A stretch of 64,000 nt of DNA from the NCBI GenBank assembly GCA_963784355.1, contig CAWAQU010000009.1:1-64000 (forward strand), written 5' to 3'. This DNA is from an uncultured bacterium. Its GTDB lineage: Bacteria; Patescibacteriota; JACMRA01. Positions 3,538 through 38,123 of this stretch are shown piece by piece; the first letter of the stretch is position 1; the number at the start of each line of letters is the position of its first letter. The translations under genes were made by a program, and so were the position numbers. A model generated the notes under the pieces. The model had not been told where the DNA came from and did no database searches. It was given only the letters and a program-made list of their open reading frames with translations.

Positions 3538-3624
3538 GCGTGAGTGGTGGAACGGTAGACACACTGGCTTCAGGTGCCAGCGGGACCTAGTCCTGTAAGG
3601 GTTCAAATCCCTTCTTGCGCACCA
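3538..3624 (+). tRNA. tRNA-Leu(CAG)
   Basis: anticodon arm ctggc-tt CAG gt-gccag, long variable arm, GGTTCAAATCC, CCA end. Confidence 0.95.
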
Positions 3625-3681
3625 AATTTAGTCTTCAGTTGACATTTTATATATTTTTGGTAAAAATTAAACTATACATAT

Positions 3682-3755
3682 TCGGGGATCGTCTAGTGGT
3701 AGGACGACGGGTTTTGGTCCCGTTAACCGGAGTTCGAATCTCTGTCCCCGAACCA
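3682..3755 (+). tRNA. tRNA-Gln(TTG), integration target
   Basis: acceptor tcgggga/tccccga, anticodon arm acggg-tt TTG gt-cccgt, GTTCGAATC, CCA end. Confidence 0.95.
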
Positions 3756-5195
3756 ATGTTGCTTATCAGCATTTTTATACAAAAACAAAAACGGTTTTTT
3801 CAGATTAAATTCAGCTTTTTGGCCTGTTTGAAGTGAGTTCGAAATAAGATATTTCAGAATTTGATTTTTTTCATGTGAATTCGAACTTTTAAATACTTCA
3901 GGTAAACGATTTATTAGATTAAATAGGCTAGAAACGGTTAAATGAAGGTCAGTTGATTCTCTGGTTTCATGGCTCAGTTCAAGATTTAATTCATATATTT
4001 TTGATTCATACTCCTGTTGCTTTTTAGTATAATCATCTTTGGTAATACTACCATCTACAAATAAGTCTGTAAGTCTGGACCGTCTATCCTCAAACTTCTC
4101 TATTTCATTATTTAATTTAATCCGTTGTTGTTTCTGATACAGGCTTTCATTATTGAAATCATTTTTCAGTTTTTCAACTATAAATTCTACGGCTTCACTT
4201 GGAAAAACAAGATTCGTTAAAATATTTTCAGCCTGCTTTAGCAGTACTTCTTCCTTTATTACCTGCTGGTAATATATACAATCTTTATTTATACATCTAT
4301 GGTAATTATAAGTTTGTTTTGCAGTATAGGGATTTATGGTTCTATTGCATTTAGAGCAAGTCAAAAGATTTCTGAAAGGATAAGGTTTAAAACCTCTTTT
4401 TTGTTTTTTGCCTGAGTTCTGGTTTTGATTTAAAATAGCCTGACATTTATCAAAAATAATTTTGGTGGTAAGCGGCTTATAGATATGCCGGTAATTTCCG
4501 TATTTACTTTTAGCTAAGCCATAGTAAAAGGAGTTGTTTAAAGTCTTATTTAAAGTCTGTCTGGTTAGTTTCTTACCCTTGTTTGTTTTAAAGCCCTTCT
4601 TATTCAAATAATCACATAATTCAGCTTGATTGTAGTTTCCTGTCCTAAACAAGTTAAAAGCCTCGGAAATTAGCTCTGATGAGTCTGTTGTATCTACTTG
4701 TCCATTTTGTCTGAAATAGCCTTCAGGAAATTTATATACAATACCTTGTGCACGACTTTCTTTCATTCCTTTTCTGACATGCTTTTTTAGACTATTAACG
4801 TATATTTTAGCGCCTAAAATATACATGTCCCACTGCAAAGAAACTTCTAAAAAGTTATCTTCCCTGACAACCAAAGATTCTTTAATAAAATGAACTTCTA
4901 AATTTTTATTCATTATCATTTTTTCCAGAATTGTACTTTCTTTAAAACCTCTTTGAAGCCTATCAACACAATGGACCACTAAAGCTATAGTTTCTTTTTG
5001 TTTGTGAATAAACTCCAAACACTTATTCAACTCATCTCTTTCATCTATAGTTGCTGACTCCTGAAATTCAAATAATTTAAGTAGTTCGAGCCTGTTTTCT
5101 TTAACATACTTACCACATTCCCGCTTTTGAGCGTCCAAAGATTTGCCCTTGATTTGGTCCTCGCTTGATACCCTGGATAAAATTATTGATTTCAT
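3723..5195 (-). CDS. Large serine recombinase/integrase (integrated-form C-terminus read from tRNA antisense)
   Basis: LSRVSSEDQ catalytic Ser, DRLQR, recombinase domain, CSKC..HRC..C zinc ribbon, coiled coil; ends WFGDRDSNSG inside tRNA-Gln. Confidence 0.95.
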   Translation of the reverse strand: MKSIILSRVSSEDQIKGKSLDAQKRECGKYVKENRLELLKLFEFQESATIDERDELNKCLEFIHKQKETIALVVHCVDRLQRGFKESTILEKMIMNKNLEVHFIKESLVVREDNFLEVSLQWDMYILGAKIYVNSLKKHVRKGMKESRAQGIVYKFPEGYFRQNGQVDTTDSSELISEAFNLFRTGNYNQAELCDYLNKKGFKTNKGKKLTRQTLNKTLNNSFYYGLAKSKYGNYRHIYKPLTTKIIFDKCQAILNQNQNSGKKQKRGFKPYPFRNLLTCSKCNRTINPYTAKQTYNYHRCINKDCIYYQQVIKEEVLLKQAENILTNLVFPSEAVEFIVEKLKNDFNNESLYQKQQRIKLNNEIEKFEDRRSRLTDLFVDGSITKDDYTKKQQEYESKIYELNLELSHETRESTDLHLTVSSLFNLINRLPEVFKSSNSHEKNQILKYLISNSLQTGQKAEFNLKKPFLFLYKNADKQHWFGDRDSNSG

Positions 5196-5590
5196 ATTTG
5201 GTCTACTAAATGCTTAATTTCTTTATCAAAGTCCTTTTTTAATTCACATTCCCATAAAGTTATTACTTTCCAGGTACTGCTTTTAAGCCACTCTTTTGTT
5301 TGTGCATCCCTTTTAATATTGGACATAATTTTATTTTCCCAAAAATCAATTTTAGTACTTGGCAACTTTGATTTCTCACAACCATGCCCGTGCCAGAAAC
5401 ATCCGTTTATAAAAACTGCTATTTTCTTTTTAAGAAAAACTATATCTGGACTTCCCTTTATTTTATAATGGATTCTATATCTAAAACCTTCTGCATATAG
5501 TCGCTTTCTTACCGCCAACTCTAAAGAAGTGTTTTTACTTTTCACTTTTGACATGTTTTTGCTTCTTTGAGCCGGGGTAATTCTATCCAT
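5192..5590 (-). CDS. vsr: Very short patch repair endonuclease
   Basis: RSKNMSKVKSKNT..E, GSPDIVF, FINGCFWHGH, WECE. Confidence 0.96.
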   Translation of the reverse strand: MDRITPAQRSKNMSKVKSKNTSLELAVRKRLYAEGFRYRIHYKIKGSPDIVFLKKKIAVFINGCFWHGHGCEKSKLPSTKIDFWENKIMSNIKRDAQTKEWLKSSTWKVITLWECELKKDFDKEIKHLVDQI

Positions 5591-6675
5591 TACTTAAATC
5601 TTATTTGGAGTGATAAATCAAAATAAATTTTATTGTTTGTAAATCTAAATGAGCCGTATTTATGCCTTGAAGATGACGGACTTTCAAAGTATACCGATTT
5701 TAAAAGATAGTCTTTAAACTGATCTTGATTATAAACATGATAACAGACTATCTCACCATCTTCTTTAACTATTAAATATCCGCCATAAACCTCATCATAG
5801 CCTGTCCAAACTTTGCCTGGACTCATTCCAAGAGCTGAAGCCCAAAGTAGGTTCTTTATTTTAAACTCATAGTCTTCCTTTTCAAGATCTAGATCTGAAA
5901 GTAGCTTACAAAATTTAGGGTCTATGGTAATGTCTGAAATAGTGCGTTTATTTGAAATATAAGAGTATTTTAGAAGTTCAGCCGTTATTTTATCCATAGC
6001 AGTGTCAATACGTCTCAAATTCTTCCTGAAAGTATCGGATTCTACTTTTTCAAATTCCAGACTTCCGCCTTTATCATATAGTGATTTTACTCTATCAAGG
6101 ACCTTAGCTTTTGTTTGTATCTGATTAATTTCTTCAGCTGTACTTTCACTAATTCCTTTAACTTCATAAACTATCCTGGTATGGTCAGAGGCGTTTAATA
6201 AGGTTGCATTACCCCCTAATTGTGATTTAATACTAAATCCCACAGTTTGATTTGTGTTTACTGTTATATCGTGAATAACAAGGGTAATATCGGATTTGTT
6301 TTGTGAAGCAGATTTTACAGTAGTGCAGTTTAGATTTTTAAATGCATCTTCAATATTATCTATTGATATAGTTCCGTTTTCGGACTCTTTTATACTTTTC
6401 AGCACATTTAATGCAGTATTTTTTAACTTGCTCCTAGAAATGTAATCTTTAAAAGTATTAGTAGAATTTTTAATAATTACTTCTGTTTCTTCAATTGTAT
6501 AAATAGTATCAGGTTTTTGTGCTTCAGACCTTAAAATTTGAAAAATTGGATAAACTATATCCTCTAAAGCTTTAAGGTTTTCGTCTGCACCATGTACCTT
6601 ACCATCTGCAAGTAATTTTACTAATGTATAAAACTCGCTCCATTCGCCTCTGTTTGCTGAAATTATTTTATTCAT
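5590..6675 (-). CDS. HpaII-family type II restriction endonuclease
   Basis: NRGEWSEFY..KLL, KSDITL, GFSIKSQLG..TLLNAS, LGMSPGKVW.G, FESPSSSRH, LSLQIRF. Confidence 0.88.
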   Translation of the reverse strand: MNKIISANRGEWSEFYTLVKLLADGKVHGADENLKALEDIVYPIFQILRSEAQKPDTIYTIEETEVIIKNSTNTFKDYISRSKLKNTALNVLKSIKESENGTISIDNIEDAFKNLNCTTVKSASQNKSDITLVIHDITVNTNQTVGFSIKSQLGGNATLLNASDHTRIVYEVKGISESTAEEINQIQTKAKVLDRVKSLYDKGGSLEFEKVESDTFRKNLRRIDTAMDKITAELLKYSYISNKRTISDITIDPKFCKLLSDLDLEKEDYEFKIKNLLWASALGMSPGKVWTGYDEVYGGYLIVKEDGEIVCYHVYNQDQFKDYLLKSVYFESPSSSRHKYGSFRFTNNKIYFDLSLQIRFK

Positions 6676-6677
6676 AA

Positions 6678-7742
6678 TTAAATTAAATCCAAACTGCTTA
6701 AAATTTGTTTTGCAGTGGCTTGAATTGCAGGAACTGCTACACTGTTTCCCAATTGCTTCATTGCTTGTGTTTCTGAAACTGGCATTATAAATCCTTTAGG
6801 AAAGCCTTGCATTTCCAAACCTTGTTTAGGATTAAGCCTTACTTCCACGCCATCAACAATATAACAATCCCAATTTCTTCTGTCATTTACCCCAGAACCT
6901 CGCCCCCCAACTCTTAGTGTGTAACCAACATTTTTCTTACATTCTCCCCCTAAAATATCTGACATAGTTTTTTTTAATGGTGTAGGATCTGGCCATTTAA
7001 AAGGTTTTAGTTCATTTTTAAATCCAACCATAAATAATCTTGGCCTGTGCTGGGGTACACCATAATTATCAGCTTTTATAACTTTATAATAAAATGAGTA
7101 ACCTAAATCTTCAGTTACAACTTTTTTTATTACCTCAAATGTTTTGCCATTATCATGGTTAAACAAACCCCTAACATTTTCAAGAAAAATTGCTTTTGGC
7201 TGCTTTTCCTTAATTATTTTTGCTATATCAAAGAAGAGCGTACCTCTAGTATCTCCAAAACCCTTTTTAAATCCTGCATTGCTGAAAGGTTGACACGGAA
7301 AACCTGCACAAAGAATATCGAAATCAGGAATTAGCTTAGGATCTTGTTTTGTAATATCCTGGTTAAAATTGCCAGACTCAAACAGTTCTTTTTCGTCTTC
7401 ATAAAAATTTGCCATGTATGTAAGTCTTGCAGACTCATTAATTTCACTTGCAAATACGCACTGTCCTCCTAGGTTTTTAAAAGCAATGTGGAAACCTCCT
7501 ATTCCAGCAAACAAGTCAATAAACTTAAATTTTGTTTCTCTTATCTCTTTTACAGGGTTATAAAACAGACTTTGCTCTTTTAGTGTATAAATGAAATTTT
7601 GAAGATTGCTTGTATCGATACGGTATTCTCTACCTATTTTATAAGCCTGTATTTTTTTCGACTTAATATATCTTCTTATGGTTAAATCACTTAAATTAAG
7701 CTGTTTTGCAACTTCACCAACTGTATAATAATTTATGTTCAT
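6678..7742 (-). CDS. DNA cytosine-5 methyltransferase with N-terminal excisionase-like HTH
   Basis: YTVGEVAKQL..TIRRYIK..AYKIGREYRI HTH, then DLFAGIGG, GFPCQPFS, ENV, QHRPR, QLGNSVAV. Confidence 0.95.
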   Translation of the reverse strand: MNINYYTVGEVAKQLNLSDLTIRRYIKSKKIQAYKIGREYRIDTSNLQNFIYTLKEQSLFYNPVKEIRETKFKFIDLFAGIGGFHIAFKNLGGQCVFASEINESARLTYMANFYEDEKELFESGNFNQDITKQDPKLIPDFDILCAGFPCQPFSNAGFKKGFGDTRGTLFFDIAKIIKEKQPKAIFLENVRGLFNHDNGKTFEVIKKVVTEDLGYSFYYKVIKADNYGVPQHRPRLFMVGFKNELKPFKWPDPTPLKKTMSDILGGECKKNVGYTLRVGGRGSGVNDRRNWDCYIVDGVEVRLNPKQGLEMQGFPKGFIMPVSETQAMKQLGNSVAVPAIQATAKQILSSLDLI

Positions 7743-19322: not shown

Positions 19323-19457
19323 TTGAGTTTTTTAAAGTTAAAGTATGTACTATAAATATTTTTTATTAATTCTTTTGTCAATTTAGACTTGGTTGTAAAA
19401 CCATATCATTGTAAAGTTCAAGTTTGATTTAACATGGTATAGACAAACTAAATTGAA

Positions 19458-19794
19458 GGTTGGCCTATAAGCGGGATTCTGTCTGGCGTTACAAGTAACG
19501 GAGGCAATAATTTTTCTACGCAGTCTACCATTCTTGACCTTGCACCGGGTGGGGTTTGCCCCCTGGTGTGTTGCCACACTTCAGGCGTGAGCTCTTACCT
19601 CGCGATTTCGCCCTTACCTAATAAATTAGGCGGTATGTTTCTGTTGCACTTTTCAGTCTAGTCCCAAAATGGTTTCAACTCCCTAAGCTTGCGCTCGGCG
19701 GTCTACTACTCCGCCACCCACTTCACTCGGCTATTTCACCGTAAGGAGTGTCCCGACTTTCCTCTGCCGTAAAGCAGCTATTGCCCGGCCAACC
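19458..19794 (-). ncRNA. rnpB: RNase P RNA
   Basis: P1 ggttggcc/ggccaacc, GAGGAAAGTCGGGAC, AGTGCAACAGAAA, GGCAAACCCC, ACAGAATCCCGCTTAT. Confidence 0.93.
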
Positions 19795-19844
19795 ATAATA
19801 AGAATATGGTAATATTCAGCTGATGTCAAACGATTATTGAGCAC

Positions 19845-19898: not shown

Positions 19899-20333
19899 TT
19901 ATTTTCTCATTTCTTCTCTTGCTGCATTAGCAATTTTTTGAGCATGATTCTGCCCGTCATGTTTGACCTCTTCCGCTTTGTCTTTAACCTCGTTAGCTTT
20001 ATCTTTTATTTCTTCCTTACCTTGTTCCATCTTCTCGTGAATACCAGCTACTACATCCCTAGTTGCATTCATTGCTTGTCCGCGGAACTCAGTAGCCTTA
20101 TCTTTCACTTGAGTACCAACTTCGCTAGCTTTATCTTTTACTTGTACACTTGCTTCGCTAATTTTATTCTTAGCATCGTCAAATCTAACTTTTGCTTCTT
20201 CTCTCATTTCTTTACCTGTTTTAGGTGTCAAAAATAGAGTTGCGATTGTAGAGATAAATCCACTTAATAAAGAAAAAATCAATACTTTTCTTCTAACTTT
20301 TTTCTGTTGCATTTTATAAATCATTCCGAACAT
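19899..20333 (-). CDS. YtxH-domain protein
   Basis: TM helix then LFLTPKTGKEMRE and 11-residue KDKA repeats. Confidence 0.85.
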   Translation of the reverse strand: MFGMIYKMQQKKVRRKVLIFSLLSGFISTIATLFLTPKTGKEMREEAKVRFDDAKNKISEASVQVKDKASEVGTQVKDKATEFRGQAMNATRDVVAGIHEKMEQGKEEIKDKANEVKDKAEEVKHDGQNHAQKIANAAREEMRK

Positions 20334-20462
20334 ATATACATGTGTGTTTTAATTTTTATCCCAAATCAGGAATATTTTAATTTAAGCTTAATTTTAAAGA
20401 TATGTCAAATAATTCCAATTGACAGCATAGTAAAGATGAGTTTTAAATCAGCTTCAAATTAG

Positions 20463-22283
20463 ATGTCTGCACTTTTTGGTAAACTGTCACTCAGTCAAAT
20501 GGAACTTGCCCATATGTTTATACAGGGAAGTAAATCTCTAGAGGAAAAAAGGGAGTTTTTAAATAATATTAATGTTTTTCCTGTTGCTGATGGAGACACA
20601 GGTGCCAACATGGCTTTTACAGTTAAGAGTGTAAGACAGGTACTCGAGAAAACTGAGTTTGAGAGTTTGGAGGAGCTAGGTAAAAGTATCTCTTCTACAG
20701 CATTAATCAATTCTAGAGGTAATTCCGGCACTGTATTATCACAGTATTTCAAAGGATTTTGTAGTGTGTTCAAAGACAACGAGTCCTTGGGTATAACAGG
20801 ACTAGCTAAGTGTTTTATTGAGGGTAATAACTCAGCAAAAGAAGCTTTTTTAAATCCACAAAAAGGTACTATTTTAGATATTATGGATACTGCTGCTGTG
20901 GTAGCTTTAGAAGGTAAGCACGCATCAATTGCTGAGCTTTTGCAGGAAATACTAACTCAAACAAAATTGTCCCTGGAAAATACAAAAAATATATTGCCTC
21001 AAATGCAATCTGCTAAAGTAGTTGATGCAGGAGCTGCCGGATTTGTGTTGATACTTGAAGGATTCCTAAGTAGTTTTACAGGAAGTAAAGTTGAGAAAAT
21101 ATTATCAGAGCAGGAATTATGTGCAGAAGCACATGAGGTACATATTTATCAGTTTGAAGAAAAAGAACTAAAATACAAGTACTGTACTGAGTGTGTGCTG
21201 GAGTCAGATTACATTAATGTTGAGAGTTTGGAGAAACAACTAGAGAACCTTGGGGATTCGCTTCAAATTGTACAAGCTGAGAATTTGTTGAAAATACATA
21301 TACACACCAACTATCCGGAAAAAGTAAGGGAAATTTGCGGCGCAGGGACCAATATAATCAATTTTAAGGCAGATGATATGGTGGCAATGCAACATGATTT
21401 TGCTCAAAAACAGAGTAATGGTAATCTAACAGATATACTTATTGTTACAGATTCGAGCGCAGATTTACCCACAGAAATTTTTGAAAAATATCCAATCAAA
21501 GTTTTACAGATTCCGGTATACGATACAAATACTCTTGAAAATATAGAATTGAATTACATCGATTTTTACAGAAAAATGGAGACTGATTCAAGCTTTAGCC
21601 CAAAGACCTCTAAAATTAACGAGCAGGCATTTATACAGGCATTTGCAGAAGGGCTTAAAAATTATAAAAGAGTTCTCTGTATTCCAATTTCAAAGGAATT
21701 AAGTGGTACTTATGAATCTGCCGTTCAAGCAAAAAAAGTCTTGAAAAGTGATAACATCACGGTTTTTGAATCAGGCACCTCAAGTAGTGGAATTACAGTG
21801 TTGATCAAAGAGTTTTTTAAGGAGTTGGAGTGTATGGGAGATTATGATCTGGCAATAAAAAAAATTTCTGGTATAAAACAAAAACTAGAGGTTTATTTTG
21901 TAGTAGATGATGTTAAATACCTAGAGAGAGGTGGTAGAATTTCTAAAAACAAAGCTAAGTTAGCCCAAATATTAAATATTCAGCCTGTGCTGGCGTTAAA
22001 AAACGGTAAGATTGTTGAGGATAAAAAACTGTTTTTTGCTAAGAATAATTTTAAAAAGGTTGATGCACTATTAGATAAAATCAGAGCCAGGTCCGGAGGG
22101 TTCGGATTGGGGGAATTTTACTTATTGTACGCTGGGAAGGAGGGCGAGGAATCAATTGAAATCTTGAGACAAAAAATACTTAGCAAAACTAAATTGAACT
22201 CAGCAAAAATCAAAATACTGGAGCTAAATTTTGTCATAGGGACTCATACAGGACCAGGTACTATTGGAGTGGTAATGTTGTAA
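20463..22283 (+). CDS. DAK2 (FakA-like) - DegV (FakB-like) fusion, fatty acid kinase
   Basis: INVFPVADGDTGANM, RGNSG, GTILD, VDAGA, YCTE, KIHIHT; then IVTDSSADL, PKTS, SKELSGTY, YLERGGRI, THTGPG. Confidence 0.93.
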   Translation: MSALFGKLSLSQMELAHMFIQGSKSLEEKREFLNNINVFPVADGDTGANMAFTVKSVRQVLEKTEFESLEELGKSISSTALINSRGNSGTVLSQYFKGFCSVFKDNESLGITGLAKCFIEGNNSAKEAFLNPQKGTILDIMDTAAVVALEGKHASIAELLQEILTQTKLSLENTKNILPQMQSAKVVDAGAAGFVLILEGFLSSFTGSKVEKILSEQELCAEAHEVHIYQFEEKELKYKYCTECVLESDYINVESLEKQLENLGDSLQIVQAENLLKIHIHTNYPEKVREICGAGTNIINFKADDMVAMQHDFAQKQSNGNLTDILIVTDSSADLPTEIFEKYPIKVLQIPVYDTNTLENIELNYIDFYRKMETDSSFSPKTSKINEQAFIQAFAEGLKNYKRVLCIPISKELSGTYESAVQAKKVLKSDNITVFESGTSSSGITVLIKEFFKELECMGDYDLAIKKISGIKQKLEVYFVVDDVKYLERGGRISKNKAKLAQILNIQPVLALKNGKIVEDKKLFFAKNNFKKVDALLDKIRARSGGFGLGEFYLLYAGKEGEESIEILRQKILSKTKLNSAKIKILELNFVIGTHTGPGTIGVVML

Positions 22284-22284
22284 T

Positions 22285-22869
22285 ATGAATTATTTTTGGC
22301 AAATTATTGTACCATTAATCAGCTTTTTTCTAGGCGGTATACCAACAGGCAAATGGGTAGCTTGGAGAGTAAAAAAAGTGAATTTGCAAGATTTTGGTAG
22401 CAAGAATATAGGTACTACAAATGCTTATCGGGCCCTTGGGCTTAAATGGGCAGTGGTTGTGTTTTTAATTGATTTTTTAAAGGGTTTTTTACCGACTATC
22501 CTAACATTATATTTCACAAAAAACCTTAATTTAAGTTTGATTGTTGGTCTTTGCTGTATTATAGGGCATATTTTTTCTCCTTATCTCAAATTTAAAGGTG
22601 GCAAAGGAGTAGCTACGAGTATAGGAGTTTGGCTGGTTTTGAGCCCTTATTTATTATTGGCTGCTATAATTATTAGTGGTGTTGTTTTAAAATTGACAAA
22701 AAAGATGTCTCTAGCGAGTCTAAGCGGGATTTCAATCTTGTTTCTTTTGGTAAATATCTTTGGGCCAAGCAACTTAAGAGTTGGTATATTTGTAACTTTT
22801 ATTATGATTATTTTTACTCATAGGAGCAACATCGCACGTTTGATGTCAAAAAACGAATTAAATATTTAA
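22285..22869 (+). CDS. plsY: Glycerol-3-phosphate acyltransferase PlsY
   Basis: GSKNIGTTNAYR, DFLKG, GHIFS..FKGGKGVAT, HRSNIARL. Confidence 0.93.
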   Translation: MNYFWQIIVPLISFFLGGIPTGKWVAWRVKKVNLQDFGSKNIGTTNAYRALGLKWAVVVFLIDFLKGFLPTILTLYFTKNLNLSLIVGLCCIIGHIFSPYLKFKGGKGVATSIGVWLVLSPYLLLAAIIISGVVLKLTKKMSLASLSGISILFLLVNIFGPSNLRVGIFVTFIMIIFTHRSNIARLMSKNELNI

Positions 22870-22870
22870 T

Positions 22871-23479
22871 ATGTCATATATATTGCTGGCTGTTGTATGC
22901 TACATAATCGGGTCTTTTCCCACAGCTTATTTGGTTGTGAAGGGTTTTACAGGTAAAAATATTTTAAATTTCGGTACAGGTAATGTCGGGACCATGAACA
23001 CACATCGTGCTACAAATAACAAAGTTTTGACTATTTTGGTCTTACTAGGAGATTTAGCCAAGGGATTTTTAGCCTATTCTATAAGTAATCAATTATTTTT
23101 AGCCGGGCAAATTGAGCTTATTTTGGGACTATCTATTGGCGGTTTTTGCATGATTTTGGGCCATAATTATTCTTTATTTTTAAAATTTAAGGGAGGTAAA
23201 GGTCTGGCTAGCGGGGCAGGATTTTTGGCAGGAATTAGTCCAACTTTTGTAATTGTATGGATAATTATATTTTTATTGGTTACTTTATTGACTAGATATA
23301 TGGTTTTAGGCCAGATGTTGGCTAGTATTGGCTTAATAATTTTTGCTTTTGCTTATGAAAATACTTTTTTTTGGCCCGTTTTTACTGTAGGAGTATTGGT
23401 AGTACTGAAACATTTTCCAAGAATGAAGAACGTACTTGAGGGTACCGAGCCCAAGATGTATTATAAAGCAAAAAATTAG
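22871..23479 (+). CDS. Second, divergent PlsY-family acyltransferase
   Basis: GTGNVGTMNTHR, DLAKG, GHNYS..FKGGKGLAS, KHFPRM. Confidence 0.88.
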   Translation: MSYILLAVVCYIIGSFPTAYLVVKGFTGKNILNFGTGNVGTMNTHRATNNKVLTILVLLGDLAKGFLAYSISNQLFLAGQIELILGLSIGGFCMILGHNYSLFLKFKGGKGLASGAGFLAGISPTFVIVWIIIFLLVTLLTRYMVLGQMLASIGLIIFAFAYENTFFWPVFTVGVLVVLKHFPRMKNVLEGTEPKMYYKAKN

Positions 23480-23518: not shown

Positions 23519-23854
23519 ATGAAAGATGTTTTTACAAACAAATTGAGGTGCTCTAAAATGAAGATAAAGTCAGGCTAAGTTAGAGAGTGGGCTGATTATA
23601 TAAATATCCATAGATCAGAATCACTACAGACATTATCTAATGAAGGTGTAGAAATTGAATCTGCATTTTTATCACATGAAGAAACAGGAGATTACATTAT
23701 ATATTATGTTAGGGGAGACTTGGATAAAATGATGCAGGTATTTAATAAGTCTGATTCTAAAATAGACCAGTACCACAAAAAGTTTTTTAGAGAAAATATA
23801 GCAGATAGAGTAGTATTAGAAACTTTAATTGATCTTGAGCCTACACAAAAATAA
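23519..23854 (+). pseudogene. DUF6176-like gene with an in-frame TAA
   Basis: KMKIKSG*VREWADYIN..ESLQTLSNEGVEIESAFL..DYIIYYVR..IDQYHKKF..LETLIDL; stop at 23576-23578. Confidence 0.65.
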
Positions 23855-23855
23855 G

Positions 23856-37000: not shown

Positions 37001-37441
37001 CTAACCAAACAAACCTGTAATATTTGTACTAGTTAGACCACTAATAAAGTTAACAATTGTATATGCAATGATTGTGATAATTAAACCGTATAAAGCATTG
37101 AAAAGTATTTTCTTTCCTTTTTTTGATCTAGCTTCATCACCATTATCAACAATGATAAGGAAACCTCCATATACTAAGAATAGTACTGCTACTGCTCCAG
37201 CTATATAAGTAAGGAATTTGGCAATGTTAAGAATAAAACTGGCTATACTGCCTCGACCTCCAATAAAACTTGAACCCTCTGTTGCACCCGTAACAGGACA
37301 GCTTCCACCACATAGCTCGGTTACACCTGGAATTTTTACTTCTGTTGCACTCACTGAAGGAGCTACAACTAAACTAAAAGCAAATATTGCAATTAATGAA
37401 AATGAAAATAGTTTTGTAAGTATGTTTGCAAATGCTGACAT
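37001..37441 (-). CDS. CPR-type (VirB2/TrbC-like) pilin, copy 1
   Basis: signal peptide ending VSA; IAGAVAVLFLVYGGF..G..KGKKILFNALYGLII..AYTIVNFI. Confidence 0.85.
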   Translation of the reverse strand: MSAFANILTKLFSFSLIAIFAFSLVVAPSVSATEVKIPGVTELCGGSCPVTGATEGSSFIGGRGSIASFILNIAKFLTYIAGAVAVLFLVYGGFLIIVDNGDEARSKKGKKILFNALYGLIITIIAYTIVNFISGLTSTNITGLFG

Positions 37442-38123
37442 AAGAATAAGATATTGTTGTTTTTTGTAACTTGTTTTTGTTAGTTAAATAAAAGTATAAC
37501 TTAGATTATTTATTTGTGCAAGTGGAAGATTTTACTTAAGCTGTTCTTAGTTGCATTTTACTCAGATGTCCCTCCAAACAAACCTGTAATATTTGTACTA
37601 GTTAGACCACTAATAAAGTTAACAATTGTATATGCAATGATTGTGATAATTAAACCGTATAAAGCATTGAAAAGTATTTTCTTTCCTTTTTTTGATCTAG
37701 CTTCATCACCATTATCAACAATGATAAGGAAACCTCCATATACTAAGAATAGTACTGCTACTGCTCCAGCTATATAAGTAAGGAATTTGGCAATGTTAAG
37801 GATGAAGGTAGCTATATTGTTTTGACTTCCGTTAGTCCCTAGAAATTGCGATCCGGTTGCTGAACCCGTAACAGGACAATTACTACCACATAATTCTGAA
37901 CGTGAAGGTAGTGACACTGTGCCATTTGCGGCAGTGGAACTAGCAGCACTCACTGAAGGAGCTACAACTAAACTAAAAGCAAATATTGCAATTAATGAAA
38001 ATGAAAATAGTTTTGTAAGTATGTTTGCAAATGCTGACATAAGAATAAGATATTGTTGTTTTTTGTAACTTGTTTTTGTTAGTTAAATAAAAGTATAACT
38101 TAGATTATTTATTTGTGCAAGTG
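37005..38123. repeat. Tandem duplication with identical flanks and variable centre
   Basis: 37005-37231 = 37574-37800 (227 bp); 37347-37524 = 37946-38123 (178 bp). Confidence 0.92.
37558..38040 (-). CDS. CPR-type (VirB2/TrbC-like) pilin, copy 2
   Basis: same constant regions as copy 1, different central segment. Confidence 0.85.
   Translation of the reverse strand: MSAFANILTKLFSFSLIAIFAFSLVVAPSVSAASSTAANGTVSLPSRSELCGSNCPVTGSATGSQFLGTNGSQNNIATFILNIAKFLTYIAGAVAVLFLVYGGFLIIVDNGDEARSKKGKKILFNALYGLIITIIAYTIVNFISGLTSTNITGLFGGTSE

Follow-up and report, generated by a model that had tools for sequence, protein, structure and literature searches.

An Operon Encoding a Predicted One-Chain Fatty Acid Kinase and Two PlsY Proteins, One with a Putatively Remodelled Acceptor Pocket, in a CPR-Like Genome

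Operon Organization and Genome Context

The window, the whole 64,000-nucleotide stretch of DNA that was analysed, carries three plus-strand open reading frames in which 1 bp separates each stop codon from the next ATG. A sequence-only reading had described these genes as a FakA–FakB fusion and two PlsY genes spaced by 1 bp. The coordinates and gaps in the ORF list of the window confirmed the layout, and the domain scores given below confirmed the gene identities. The Pfam matches of the three ORFs, with E-values from 8e-59 to 1.6e-36, are far beyond chance. The features of the locus are the following:

20334..20462, plus strand: 129-bp intergenic region upstream of the operon, presumed promoter region (function from position only)
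20463..22283, plus strand: ORF1, 606 aa, putative single-chain fatty acid kinase composed of FakA_N, FakA_L/M and FakB/DegV parts, without FakA_C (Pfam, NCBIfam)
20580..21068, plus strand: Dak2 / FakA_N ATP-Mg domain of ORF1, aa 40–202 (Pfam PF02734, 117.6 bits)
21171..21386, plus strand: FakA middle (FakA_L/M, FakA-like_M) domain of ORF1 with the Cys-His-His triad, aa 237–308 (PF21645, 64.9 bits)
21435..22277, plus strand: FakB/DegV fatty-acid-binding domain of ORF1, aa 325–605 (PF02645, 199.7 bits)
22285..22869, plus strand: ORF2, PlsY-a, 194 aa, predicted canonical acyl-phosphate:glycerol-3-phosphate (G3P) sn-1 acyltransferase (TIGR00023)
22871..23479, plus strand: ORF3, PlsY-b, 202 aa, probable divergent PlsY-subfamily acyltransferase with a remodelled acceptor pocket (PF02660)

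A consensus scan of 20334..20462 gave no match to a plus-strand promoter.

The genome of the window (G000) is consistent with a Patescibacteria/CPR-type organism, in agreement with the sequence-only reading. Its assembly comprises 1,138,885 bp in 13 contigs and is about 81% complete, the closest named homologs are labelled "Patescibacteria group bacterium", and genomes of the phylum sample range roughly from 0.6 to 2.1 Mb among those listed. Four other sampled genomes of the same phylum were used for comparison: G129, which is kin to G000 (85% complete, about 120 contigs), G118 (68% complete), G275 from the same genus, and G167, a closed genome of the same family (86% complete). Because the assemblies of G000, G118 and G129 are incomplete, gene absences in these three are provisional. 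A recent insertion of the operon was considered and rejected for want of compositional support, as its GC content of 0.33–0.34 resembles that found elsewhere in the window and its flanks are free of mobile genes.

ORF1 Combines FakA and FakB Domains

The nucleotide-binding part of ORF1 was aligned with the kinase of Staphylococcus aureus. Residues N37, D43, D45, T46, N87 and D188 correspond to N32, D38, D40, T41, N82 and D185 of S. aureus FakA, which serve as its ATP-Mg ligands (PMC9136124). In the middle domain, C241, H279 and H281 correspond to C240, H282 and H284, the catalytic triad of the S. aureus middle domain (PMC9136124). None of these three residues varied among 19 fusion homologs, and all are present in G000, G129 and G118.

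The C-terminal part is a full DegV domain, scoring 199.7 bits with PF02645 against a cut-off of 27 and 208.8 bits with TIGR00762 against 99.7, and 21 solved DegV/FakB chains matched ORF1 at E <= 1e-10. In the alignment to 4x9x and other solved FakB/DegV chains, T382 falls on the KTS position, S414 on LSGT, R492 on GGR and H595 on HTG. In FakB2 of Streptococcus suis the fatty-acid carboxylate is contacted by T61, S93, H264 and R170 (PMC10848957). All of these carboxylate-contact residues are kept in ORF1, and ligand binding is predicted on that basis. The FakA-like_C model reached 21.3 bits, under its cut-off of 23, and the full DegV match occupies the region concerned. Whole-protein FakA models also stayed under their cut-offs, with 276.4 against 396.1 bits for TIGR03599 (YloV) and 204.3 against 975 bits for NF038248. 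A genome search found ORF1 to be the sole DegV gene of G000, with no free FakB gene. ORF1 thus has the domains and residues of a one-chain fatty acid kinase, an activity that it would be expected to carry out. The fusion homolog of G275 has lost C241, H279, T382, R492 and H595, and both PlsYs are gone from that genome.

PlsY-a Is Canonical and PlsY-b Is Altered at the Acceptor Pocket

Both PlsY proteins match the Pfam and TIGRFAM PlsY models from end to end and exceed the PF02660 cut-off of 24.1 bits by a wide margin, with 156.8 bits for PlsY-a and 126.3 bits for PlsY-b. Against the TIGR00023 equivalog cut-off of 137.2 bits, PlsY-a scored above (144.3 bits) and PlsY-b below (126.3 bits). Alignment to the Aquifex aeolicus enzyme (5xj5) gave E-values of 1.1e-28 and 1.6e-19, respectively. 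A prediction of a complex between PlsY-a and PlsY-b returned a score of 0.00 and a mark of 0.32, values that count neither for nor against an association. Residues below follow the A. aeolicus numbering, except T36, R46, H98, K110, Q148, H181, R184 and N187, which are in the numbering of PlsY-b itself.

PlsY-a of G000 has S35, N37, T41, N42, R45, H92, K104, S142, H177, N180 and R183 all intact. The acyl-phosphate donor site is also intact in PlsY-b, with H92, the K104 loop, N37, N42, R45, H177 and E189 in place; its "phosphate hole" includes H98 (equivalent to H92) and the KFKGGKGLAS stretch, and the FKGGKG loop is kept in both proteins. The G3P pocket of PlsY-b is formed by T36, R46, K110, R184, Q148 and H181, which differ at three of the six positions from S35, R45, K104, N180, S142 and H177. 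The altered motifs that the sequence-only reading had pointed out, GTGNVGTMN (aa 35–43) and KHFPRM (aa 180–185), are present in the translation, and their changes fall on acceptor-pocket and acyl-carbonyl residues and are conserved in the clade. S35T, S142Q and N180R (T36, Q148 and R184 in PlsY-b) lie in the G3P pocket, T41M (M42) is at the acyl-carbonyl contact, and R183N (N187) completes the set. In the A. aeolicus enzyme, S35, R45, K104 and N180 clamp the phosphate, while S142 and H177 bind the 2-hydroxyl (PMC5700162). There, S35T leaves 17% of the activity and N180 substitutions leave 1–5% (PMC5700162).

These replacements recur across the homologs of PlsY-b. Among 119 of them, T35 occurred in 93, M or L at position 41 in 101, Q142 in 105 and R or K at position 180 in 116, with H92 and K/R104 present in 119 of 119. 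The homologs formed one clade (SH-aLRT 99) in a quick IQ-TREE run that took every second hit per list (60 of 119 each) plus 16 locus PlsYs and trimmed long ORFs to 260 aa. Between genomes, PlsY-b proteins are 49–53% identical and PlsY-a proteins 35–36%. PlsY-a is non-canonical in two of the three genomes, carrying H92N in G129 and N37A with S142N in G118. The b-type signature occurred in tandem pairs only, being absent from 23 other locus PlsYs and from 30 PlsYs of 30 other genomes. PlsY-b-type changes were seen in about 21 of the best 150 representatives of a family that totals 12,147, some PlsY-b homologs sit on contigs of 1–3.6 Mb, and an ESM Atlas search returned generic PlsY clusters only. 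Judged by its sequence, PlsY-b is a member of a rare, conserved, monophyletic subfamily and not a decaying copy.

Lipid Genes in G000 and Its Relatives

The sequence-only reading had proposed an ACP- and CoA-independent route to phosphatidic acid. Searches of G000 for plsC, plsX and acpP agreed with it, whereas those for cdsA and gpsA/glpK did not. A profile search for PlsC (PF01553, the acyltransferase domain bearing the HX4D motif) gave no candidates in G000, G129 or G118. The same three genomes had no matches to PlsX, ACP or AMP-binding (acyl-CoA-type) ligases. KAS, the marker used for FASII, was found in none of five genomes searched, G000 included, DUF374 in none of six, and MBOAT in G129 only. 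Since PlsC, PlsX, ACP, KAS and acyl-CoA/AMP ligases were not found, acyl-phosphate made by the Fak kinase would be the sole detectable acyl donor.

GpsA was not found in the genome search of G000. One weak GpsA_N match was rejected because the ORF is PDH_N-like, and tblastn with the GpsA proteins of G129 and G118 found no gpsA remnant past PlsY-b. Searches of G000 for GlpK, GDPD, CdsA, CarS-like and CDP-alcohol transferase genes gave none. Neither G3P supply nor phosphatidic acid use is visible in G000, so the path to membrane phospholipid cannot be followed from end to end there. In contrast, G129 and G118 have the same three-gene operon with gpsA at its end and each carry, elsewhere in the genome, a CarS-like cytidylyltransferase gene and two CDP-alcohol transferase genes. 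With these genes present, only the step from lysophosphatidic acid (LPA) to phosphatidic acid is without a candidate in G129 and G118. All of these genes are absent from the closed genome G167.

Distribution of the Fusion and the Three-Gene Module

The three-gene module occurred in 3 of 401 sampled genomes and is therefore too rare to be a general answer for CPR membranes. Of 301 genomes sampled from the phylum, 241 (about 80%) gave no PlsC match, and a PlsC-less state this common means that three PlsC-less module genomes, two of them kin, prove little. The 14 nearest fusion homologs whose contigs exceed 10 kb include 11 with a contig equal in size to one bearing a PlsY-b homolog. The fusion itself is widespread beyond the phylum, and PlsC was present in all eight fusion-bearing genomes from other phyla. 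The fusion-bearing set consists of loci L023, L052, L063, L069, L073 and L075, with fusions of about 600 aa, and L060 and L061, with a longer match span. A second fusion type of about 834–845 aa that retains FakA_C was seen in Fusobacteria. The fusion-alignment scan of genome contigs keyed on the shared Dak2 motif, and ordinary FakA dominated its matches. A scan of metagenome contigs with PlsY-b was likewise swamped via the common FKGGK motif. Among its 80 loci, the tandem pair appeared in one (L097, near-identical to G118), and in five a single canonical PlsY lay no more than about 3 kb from a fusion homolog.

Proposed Pathway and Alternatives

Our preferred reading, a tentative one with somewhat less than an even chance, is that the operon encodes a self-contained acyl-phosphate pathway independent of ACP and CoA, with PlsY-b most likely acylating the sn-2 position of LPA. 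The FakB-type domain of the fused kinase would bind a scavenged free fatty acid, which would leave as acyl-phosphate. Because this domain takes the place of FakA_C, the carboxylate could be presented to the Dak2 and Cys-His-His domains without separate docking. PlsY-a would then move the acyl group onto the sn-1 position of G3P to give LPA. PlsY-b would place a second acyl-phosphate-derived chain on a different acceptor, most likely the sn-2 hydroxyl of LPA; the product would be phosphatidic acid, and PlsY-b would stand in for PlsC, a family with no match in G000. To our knowledge, no acyl-phosphate-dependent LPA acyltransferase has been described. That PlsY-b may be the founder of such an activity, an acyl-phosphate-dependent 1-acyl-glycerol-3-phosphate (sn-2) acyltransferase, is a doubtful but real possibility.

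An sn-2 role for PlsY-b is a reasonable candidate assignment, if a provisional one, because the donor site is kept, the acceptor pocket is changed, and the LPA-to-phosphatidic acid step is the only one unfilled in G129 and G118. It is weakened by the lack of gpsA and a CDP-diacylglycerol pathway in G000, by PlsC-lessness being the norm of the phylum, by the rarity of the module and by the co-occurrence of the fusion with PlsC elsewhere. In addition, PlsY-a is non-canonical in two of three genomes and an Arg at position 180 might still clamp a phosphate, so G3P acylation could instead fall mainly to PlsY-b, its pocket being compensated. CPR-rich cell fractions were reported to be enriched in lysolipids (PMC7242380), so LPA-type products might suffice.

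The same combination of a kept donor site and an altered acceptor pocket would also suit transfer from acyl-phosphate to another acceptor, such as scavenged lysophospholipids (re-acylation or remodelling), the sn-2 hydroxyl of G3P, glycerol-1-phosphate or a monoacylglycerol-type lipid. We consider this unlikely. It fits G000 better than de novo synthesis does, since that genome has no G3P-making gene and no CDP-diacylglycerol pathway; lysolipids of CPR-rich fractions are thought to derive from other cells (PMC7242380, available part), and mycobacteria acylate sn-2 first (PMC10593935, as excerpted). However, the operon-borne gpsA and the CarS-like/CDP-alcohol pathway of G129 and G118 point to de novo phosphatidic acid, and the kept R45 and K104 with the extra Arg180 fit a lysolipid with a head group no better than a phosphomonoester such as LPA. 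PlsY-b could also be a second G3P sn-1 isozyme, differing in chain preference or regulation. In that case an unrecognised enzyme would add the second chain, or there would be no second chain and the membrane would consist of lysolipids or host-derived lipids. PlsY paralogs are common (two to three matches in 9 of 50 other genomes), chain-specific roles have been proposed for the two PlsYs of Lactobacillus johnsonii (PMC11625735, in the portion available), and most of the phylum lives without PlsC. R45, K104, H177 and H92 are kept in PlsY-b, while PlsY-a is the less conserved copy, with H92N or N37A in relatives. What makes an isozyme rather improbable is the joint and conserved replacement of S35, S142, N180 and T41. 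In the A. aeolicus enzyme, single changes at S35, T41 and N180 cost 83–99% of the activity and S142A about 70% (PMC5700162). The best-matching PlsY of each of 30 other genomes is canonical at S142, H177 and N180 in all 30, with the full signature exact in 28.

A remnant of a pathway under loss, in which the genes are intact but no membrane lipid is produced any more, or the kinase serves mainly to detoxify or sequester free fatty acids, is very unlikely for G000. The absence of the operon-end gpsA of G129 and G118 and of the CDP-alcohol pathway would agree with loss, as would the depleted G275 and the closed G167 without any of these genes. Yet all three ORFs of G000 are intact with every key residue present, the 1-bp spacing is preserved, and partner genes could lie in unassembled sequence, the completeness score being 81% for G000 and 86% for the closed G167.

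In every bacterial route to phosphatidic acid known to us, the second acylation is carried out by a PlsC-family enzyme using acyl-ACP or acyl-CoA. The putative sn-2 acylation by PlsY-b would, if true, be a new reaction for the PlsY fold and would allow phosphatidic acid to be made from free fatty acids and G3P by three proteins, without ACP, CoA or PlsC. Such a minimal, transferable starter module for membrane lipids would be of interest for synthetic-cell work. Probst et al. 2020 asked for the source of acyl-phosphate in CPR genomes with PlsY and without PlsX (PMC7242380). The predicted fused Fak kinase offers an answer for one lineage. PlsY-b, at about 200 aa, conserved and marked by four diagnostic residue changes, makes a clear candidate for the second acylation, a step otherwise unfilled.

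Comparison with Known Systems

In published FakA models, FakA_C docks FakB or receives from it. The predicted kinase of G000 shares with the two-component FakA and FakB of Staphylococcus and Streptococcus (7rm7, 7w7h, 6alw and other structures) the Dak2 ligands, the Cys-His-His domain and the Thr/Ser/His/Arg contacts of the DegV fold, but it is one polypeptide in which FakB replaces FakA_C. Both PlsYs share the acyl-phosphate "phosphate hole" of A. aeolicus PlsY (5xj5–5xj9), and PlsY-a has all of its named contacts, whereas PlsY-b differs by S35T, T41M, S142Q, N180R and R183N. The likeness of PlsY-b to PlsC lies in the proposed reaction only, LPA sn-2 acylation to phosphatidic acid; it may work like PlsC without belonging to that family, since it has no sequence relation to PlsC and matches PF02660 only, and PlsC uses acyl-ACP or acyl-CoA. 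Bacillota genomes with several PlsYs, such as L. johnsonii with plsY1 and plsY2, likewise hold more than one PlsY gene. Here, the PlsYs are adjacent, one pocket is rebuilt and PlsC was not found, whereas there the best PlsY is canonical at the acceptor positions in 30 of 30. Finally, the single-chain dihydroxyacetone kinase of Citrobacter, a DhaK–DhaL fusion, also joins an EDD-fold binder and a Dak2/DhaL domain in one chain, a parallel that has been drawn for FakA (PMC10848957). Compared with that enzyme, ORF1 has the reversed domain order, a DegV tunnel predicted to hold the fatty acid, and an extra Cys-His-His middle domain.

Operon Organization and Source Genome

The operon comprises three genes with one base between each stop codon and the next ATG, which bore out the spacing noted in the sequence-only reading:

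20463-22283, + strand: ORF1, fusion kinase, 606 aa (Pfam Dak2, FakA-like_M and DegV)
22285-22869, + strand: ORF2, PlsY-a, 194 aa (PF02660, 156.8 bits)
22871-23479, + strand: ORF3, PlsY-b, 202 aa (PF02660, 126.3 bits)

Against the NCBIfam PlsY equivalog cut-off of 137.2, ORF2 scored over (144.3) and ORF3 under (126.3). Other features of the window were also recorded:

3538-3621 and 3682-3752: two tRNA genes; after them the minus strand encodes a serine recombinase, Vsr endonuclease, HpaII-type restriction enzyme and C5 cytosine methylase, and 3538-7742 has the look of a small restriction-modification island that has integrated
19902-20333 and 19452-19796, - strand: membrane-anchored, YtxH-like protein that also matches oleosin weakly, divergent from the operon; an RNase P RNA gene lies just past the YtxH-like gene
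23586-23855, + strand: open frame of ~90 codons, read by eye, that lacks an ATG, GTG or TTG close to its beginning; it falls within the 434 bp separating PlsY-b from the ftsZ end, is unrelated to GpsA and may be a gene fragment
37004-38040, - strand: pair of adjoining small proteins with T4SS_pilin family matches

The source assembly (G000) spans 1,138,885 bp in 13 contigs, with 81.13% completeness and 1.46% contamination, and the window corresponds to C9:1-64000. A closed genome of the same family (G167) scores only 86% complete, from which we infer that G000 is nearly complete rather than missing one-fifth. Long ORFs under table 11, closest named homologs labeled "Patescibacteria group bacterium" and the sizes of the listed genomes in the phylum sample (~0.6-2.1 Mb) fit a CPR/Patescibacteria source.

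The Fused Kinase

Pfam placed Dak2 at aa 40-202, FakA-like_M at 237-308 and DegV at 325-605 of ORF1. FakA-like_C reached 21.3 bits, under its cut-off of 23, on the same stretch that matched full-length DegV at 199.7 bits. Alignment to the solved FakA_N and to full-length FakA equated N37, D43, D45, T46, N87 and D188 with N32, D38, D40, T41, N82 and D185 of S. aureus FakA, described as its ADP-Mg ligands, and C241, H279 and H281 with the catalytic C240, H282 and H284 of its middle domain (PMC9136124). These residues are invariant or nearly so across 19 aligned fusion homologs. The C-terminal half aligned along its whole length with DegV/FakB chains of solved structure and keeps T382, S414, H595 and R492 at the positions where T61, S93, H264 and R170 of S. 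suis FakB2 bind the fatty-acid carboxylate (PMC10848957). FakA_C, as described in the same source, lacks the carboxylate-binding arginine; the C-terminal domain of the fusion is therefore FakB-like and not a drifted FakA_C. No second DegV gene was found elsewhere in G000.

FakA_C is reported to dock FakB (PMC9136124) or, alternatively, to receive the fatty acid beside FakA_N (PMC10848957). Given these roles, a FakB placed at the FakA_C position would plausibly yield a one-chain kinase. Judged by domains, residues and gene linkage, the fusion very probably supplies PlsY with acyl-phosphate without any need for ACP or CoA, a proposal of the sequence-only reading that is thereby well supported.

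Residues and Relatives of PlsY-b

Both PlsY proteins aligned over their full length to Aquifex aeolicus PlsY (aaPlsY, 5xj5), with E values of 1.1e-28 for PlsY-a and 1.6e-19 for PlsY-b. In aaPlsY, the acyl-phosphate site is described as H92 and the K104-A107 backbone amides, the acyl carbonyl being contacted by the hydroxyl of T41, and the G3P pocket as a phosphate clamp of S35, R45, K104 and N180 with S142 and H177 binding the 2-OH (PMC5700162). Asn occupies position 180 in 89.1% of 7,288 PlsY homologs (PMC5700162). PlsY-a of G000 keeps all named residues of both sites. PlsY-b has five changed positions, T36, M42, Q148, R184 and N187, equivalent to S35T, T41M, S142Q, N180R and R183N, while N37, N42, R45, H92, K104, H177 and E189 are kept.

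This pattern recurs among 119 PlsY-b homologs (37-59% identity), as follows.

Residues at aaPlsY positions in 119 PlsY-b homologs
Position 35: T in 93
Position 41: M or L in 101
Position 142: Q in 105
Position 180: R or K in 116
N37, N42, R45 and H92: kept in 119

A quick maximum-likelihood tree built from 142 PlsYs grouped 59 of 60 sampled rows from the PlsY-b search and the three tandem PlsY-b copies in one clade (SH-aLRT 99), and placed the PlsY-a copies with canonical PlsYs. Exhaustive searching with PlsY-b returned 12,147 representatives at E ≤0.001, only 12 of them at ≤1e-30; about 21 of the best 150 carried the b-type pattern, and no listed member of this set had the look of a fused form. 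The signature was absent from 23 other PlsYs from fetched loci and from the best PlsY match in each of 30 other, mostly Bacillota, genomes, 28 of which read exactly S-T-S-H-N-R. Across the genomes that carry the module (G000, with G129 and G118 from the same phylum), orthologs shared 49% and 53% identity for PlsY-b vs 35% and 36% for PlsY-a. By its conserved pattern, single clade and better cross-genome conservation, PlsY-b is a distinct enzyme under selection, in which the donor site is preserved and the acceptor site remodeled. Some PlsY-b homologs lie on contigs of 1-3.6 Mb (P0170, P0175-P0177, P0182, P0202, P0212 and P0214). Another divergent PlsY type is the second, unlinked paralog of an Eisenbacteria genome (G401; L183, C202:2057-2563), with T41R, S142G and N180D; that genome also has a canonical PlsY, the fusion and PlsC.

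Lipid Genes and Distribution in the Phylum

Searches of G000 for PlsC (PF01553), PlsX and ACP returned no match, in line with the ACP-independent, PlsC-free route proposed from sequence, and KAS was absent from all five genomes searched, which agrees with the suggested lack of FASII. CdsA, GpsA and GlpK, also named as genes to look for, were not found in G000, and neither were GDPD, CarS and CDP-alcohol transferase. One weak GpsA match was ruled out as a PDH_N-like ORF. PlsX and ACP were missing from 6/6 genomes, G129 and G118 included, DUF374 was missing from 6/6, MBOAT occurred in G129 only, and AMP-binding ligases were absent from G000, G129 and G118. Because these searches found no other donor gene, acyl-phosphate is the only activated donor detectable in the three module-bearing genomes.

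PlsY was present in 12, PlsC in 60 and DegV in 6 of 301 sampled phylum genomes. The PlsY-b type is rare (3/401), confined to G000, G129 (same family) and G118 (different family); in each of them the fusion occurs together with PlsY-a and PlsY-b, and PlsC is missing. PlsC was present in 4/9 genomes with a single PlsY. The operon runs on into gpsA in G129 and G118, where a CarS-like protein of the CDP-archaeol synthase family (180-186 aa; L184:3373-3930, + strand, and L185:3978-4517, - strand, respectively) adjoins a CDP-alcohol phosphatidyltransferase. These short proteins appear to stand in for canonical CdsA. Each genome also has a second CDP-alcohol transferase, which in G129 adjoins a PAP2 phosphatase. 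On the way from DHAP to head-group attachment, both genomes hold a candidate gene for all steps but one, the conversion of LPA to phosphatidic acid.

Other PlsY forms were also seen. A 978-aa protein of G051 (L090:6680-9616, + strand) joins an N-terminal divergent PlsY, without R45, H92, K104 and H177, to PPDK_N and PEP-utilizers domains and could represent a different, kinase-coupled use of the fold. PlsYs with C-terminal extensions of 200-390 aa and no clear family occur in G029 (L091:4954-6678, - strand; weak Shikimate_DH-like match, GpsA-like gene next), G285 (L092:5642-7426, - strand) and G013 (L093:6736-7935, + strand); G285 and G013 gave no PlsC match.

Possible Role of PlsY-b

For the missing step, PlsY-b alone among candidates combines suitable donor chemistry with a fitting operon position and phyletic distribution. 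It would acylate LPA at sn-2 with acyl-phosphate as donor, giving phosphatidic acid. Reasoned from this pathway hole, the assignment is tentative, and we rate its chance as somewhat under even. A broader proposal, in which PlsY-b transfers the acyl group of acyl-phosphate to an acceptor that is not G3P, is rather probable. Absence of PlsC from three genomes, of which two are related, counts for little, since 241/301 sampled phylum genomes lack it; G118 is, in addition, only 68% complete. Lysolipids are reported as enriched in CPR-rich cell fractions (PMC7242380), which weighs against sn-2 acylation. In G000, nothing shows where the acceptor comes from or what becomes of phosphatidic acid, because GpsA, GlpK, GDPD, CarS/CdsA and CDP-alcohol transferase were not found; the genes may lie in unassembled sequence, acceptors may be imported, or the pathway may be eroding.

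The alterations of PlsY-a in the other two genomes (H92N in G129; N37A plus S142N in G118) leave room for a reading in which PlsY-b, through compensation in its pocket, is the enzyme that mainly acylates G3P. However, S35T, T41M, S142Q and N180R sit at the G3P pocket and acyl-carbonyl contacts, where aaPlsY is reported to retain 17% of its activity with S35T and 1-5% with N180A/D/H/Q and to be severely impaired by T41A (PMC5700162).

Comparison with Fusions in Other Lineages

The Dak2, FakA_M and DegV architecture is not rare: it was present in all 120 best matches, whose sources include Patescibacteria, Marinimicrobia, Zixibacteria and Methanosarcina mazei, and the closest non-self homolog was only 42% identical. 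A ~600-aa fusion is annotated in M. mazei on a 4.07-Mb contig, and Fusobacteria (Fusobacterium, Psychrilyobacter) have a longer form of ~834-845 aa with an additional FakA_C match; matches P0019, P0046, P0047, P0059, P0078, P0082, P0084 and P0094 cover both. Our literature search found no description of natural FakA-FakB fusions, and the passages of PMC10848957 and PMC13400652 using "fusion" concern other things. Among the 14 nearest homologs on contigs >10 kb, 11 had a PlsY-b homolog on a contig of exactly equal length, and these equal lengths suggest co-location. In G275, of the same genus as G000, a fusion homolog with 35% identity (L086:6868-8685, - strand) lacks C241, H279, N87, T382, R492 and H595 and may have decayed or taken on another role; this genome has no PlsY and two AMP-binding ligases instead.

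Outside the phylum, fusion homologs adjoin or lie near a single canonical PlsY at two loci (L052 and L063) and at 5/80 metagenome loci. Unfused FakA, FakB and PlsY are consecutive in G033. Because 8/8 fusion-bearing genomes of other phyla have PlsC, the fusion itself implies no PlsC-free pathway.
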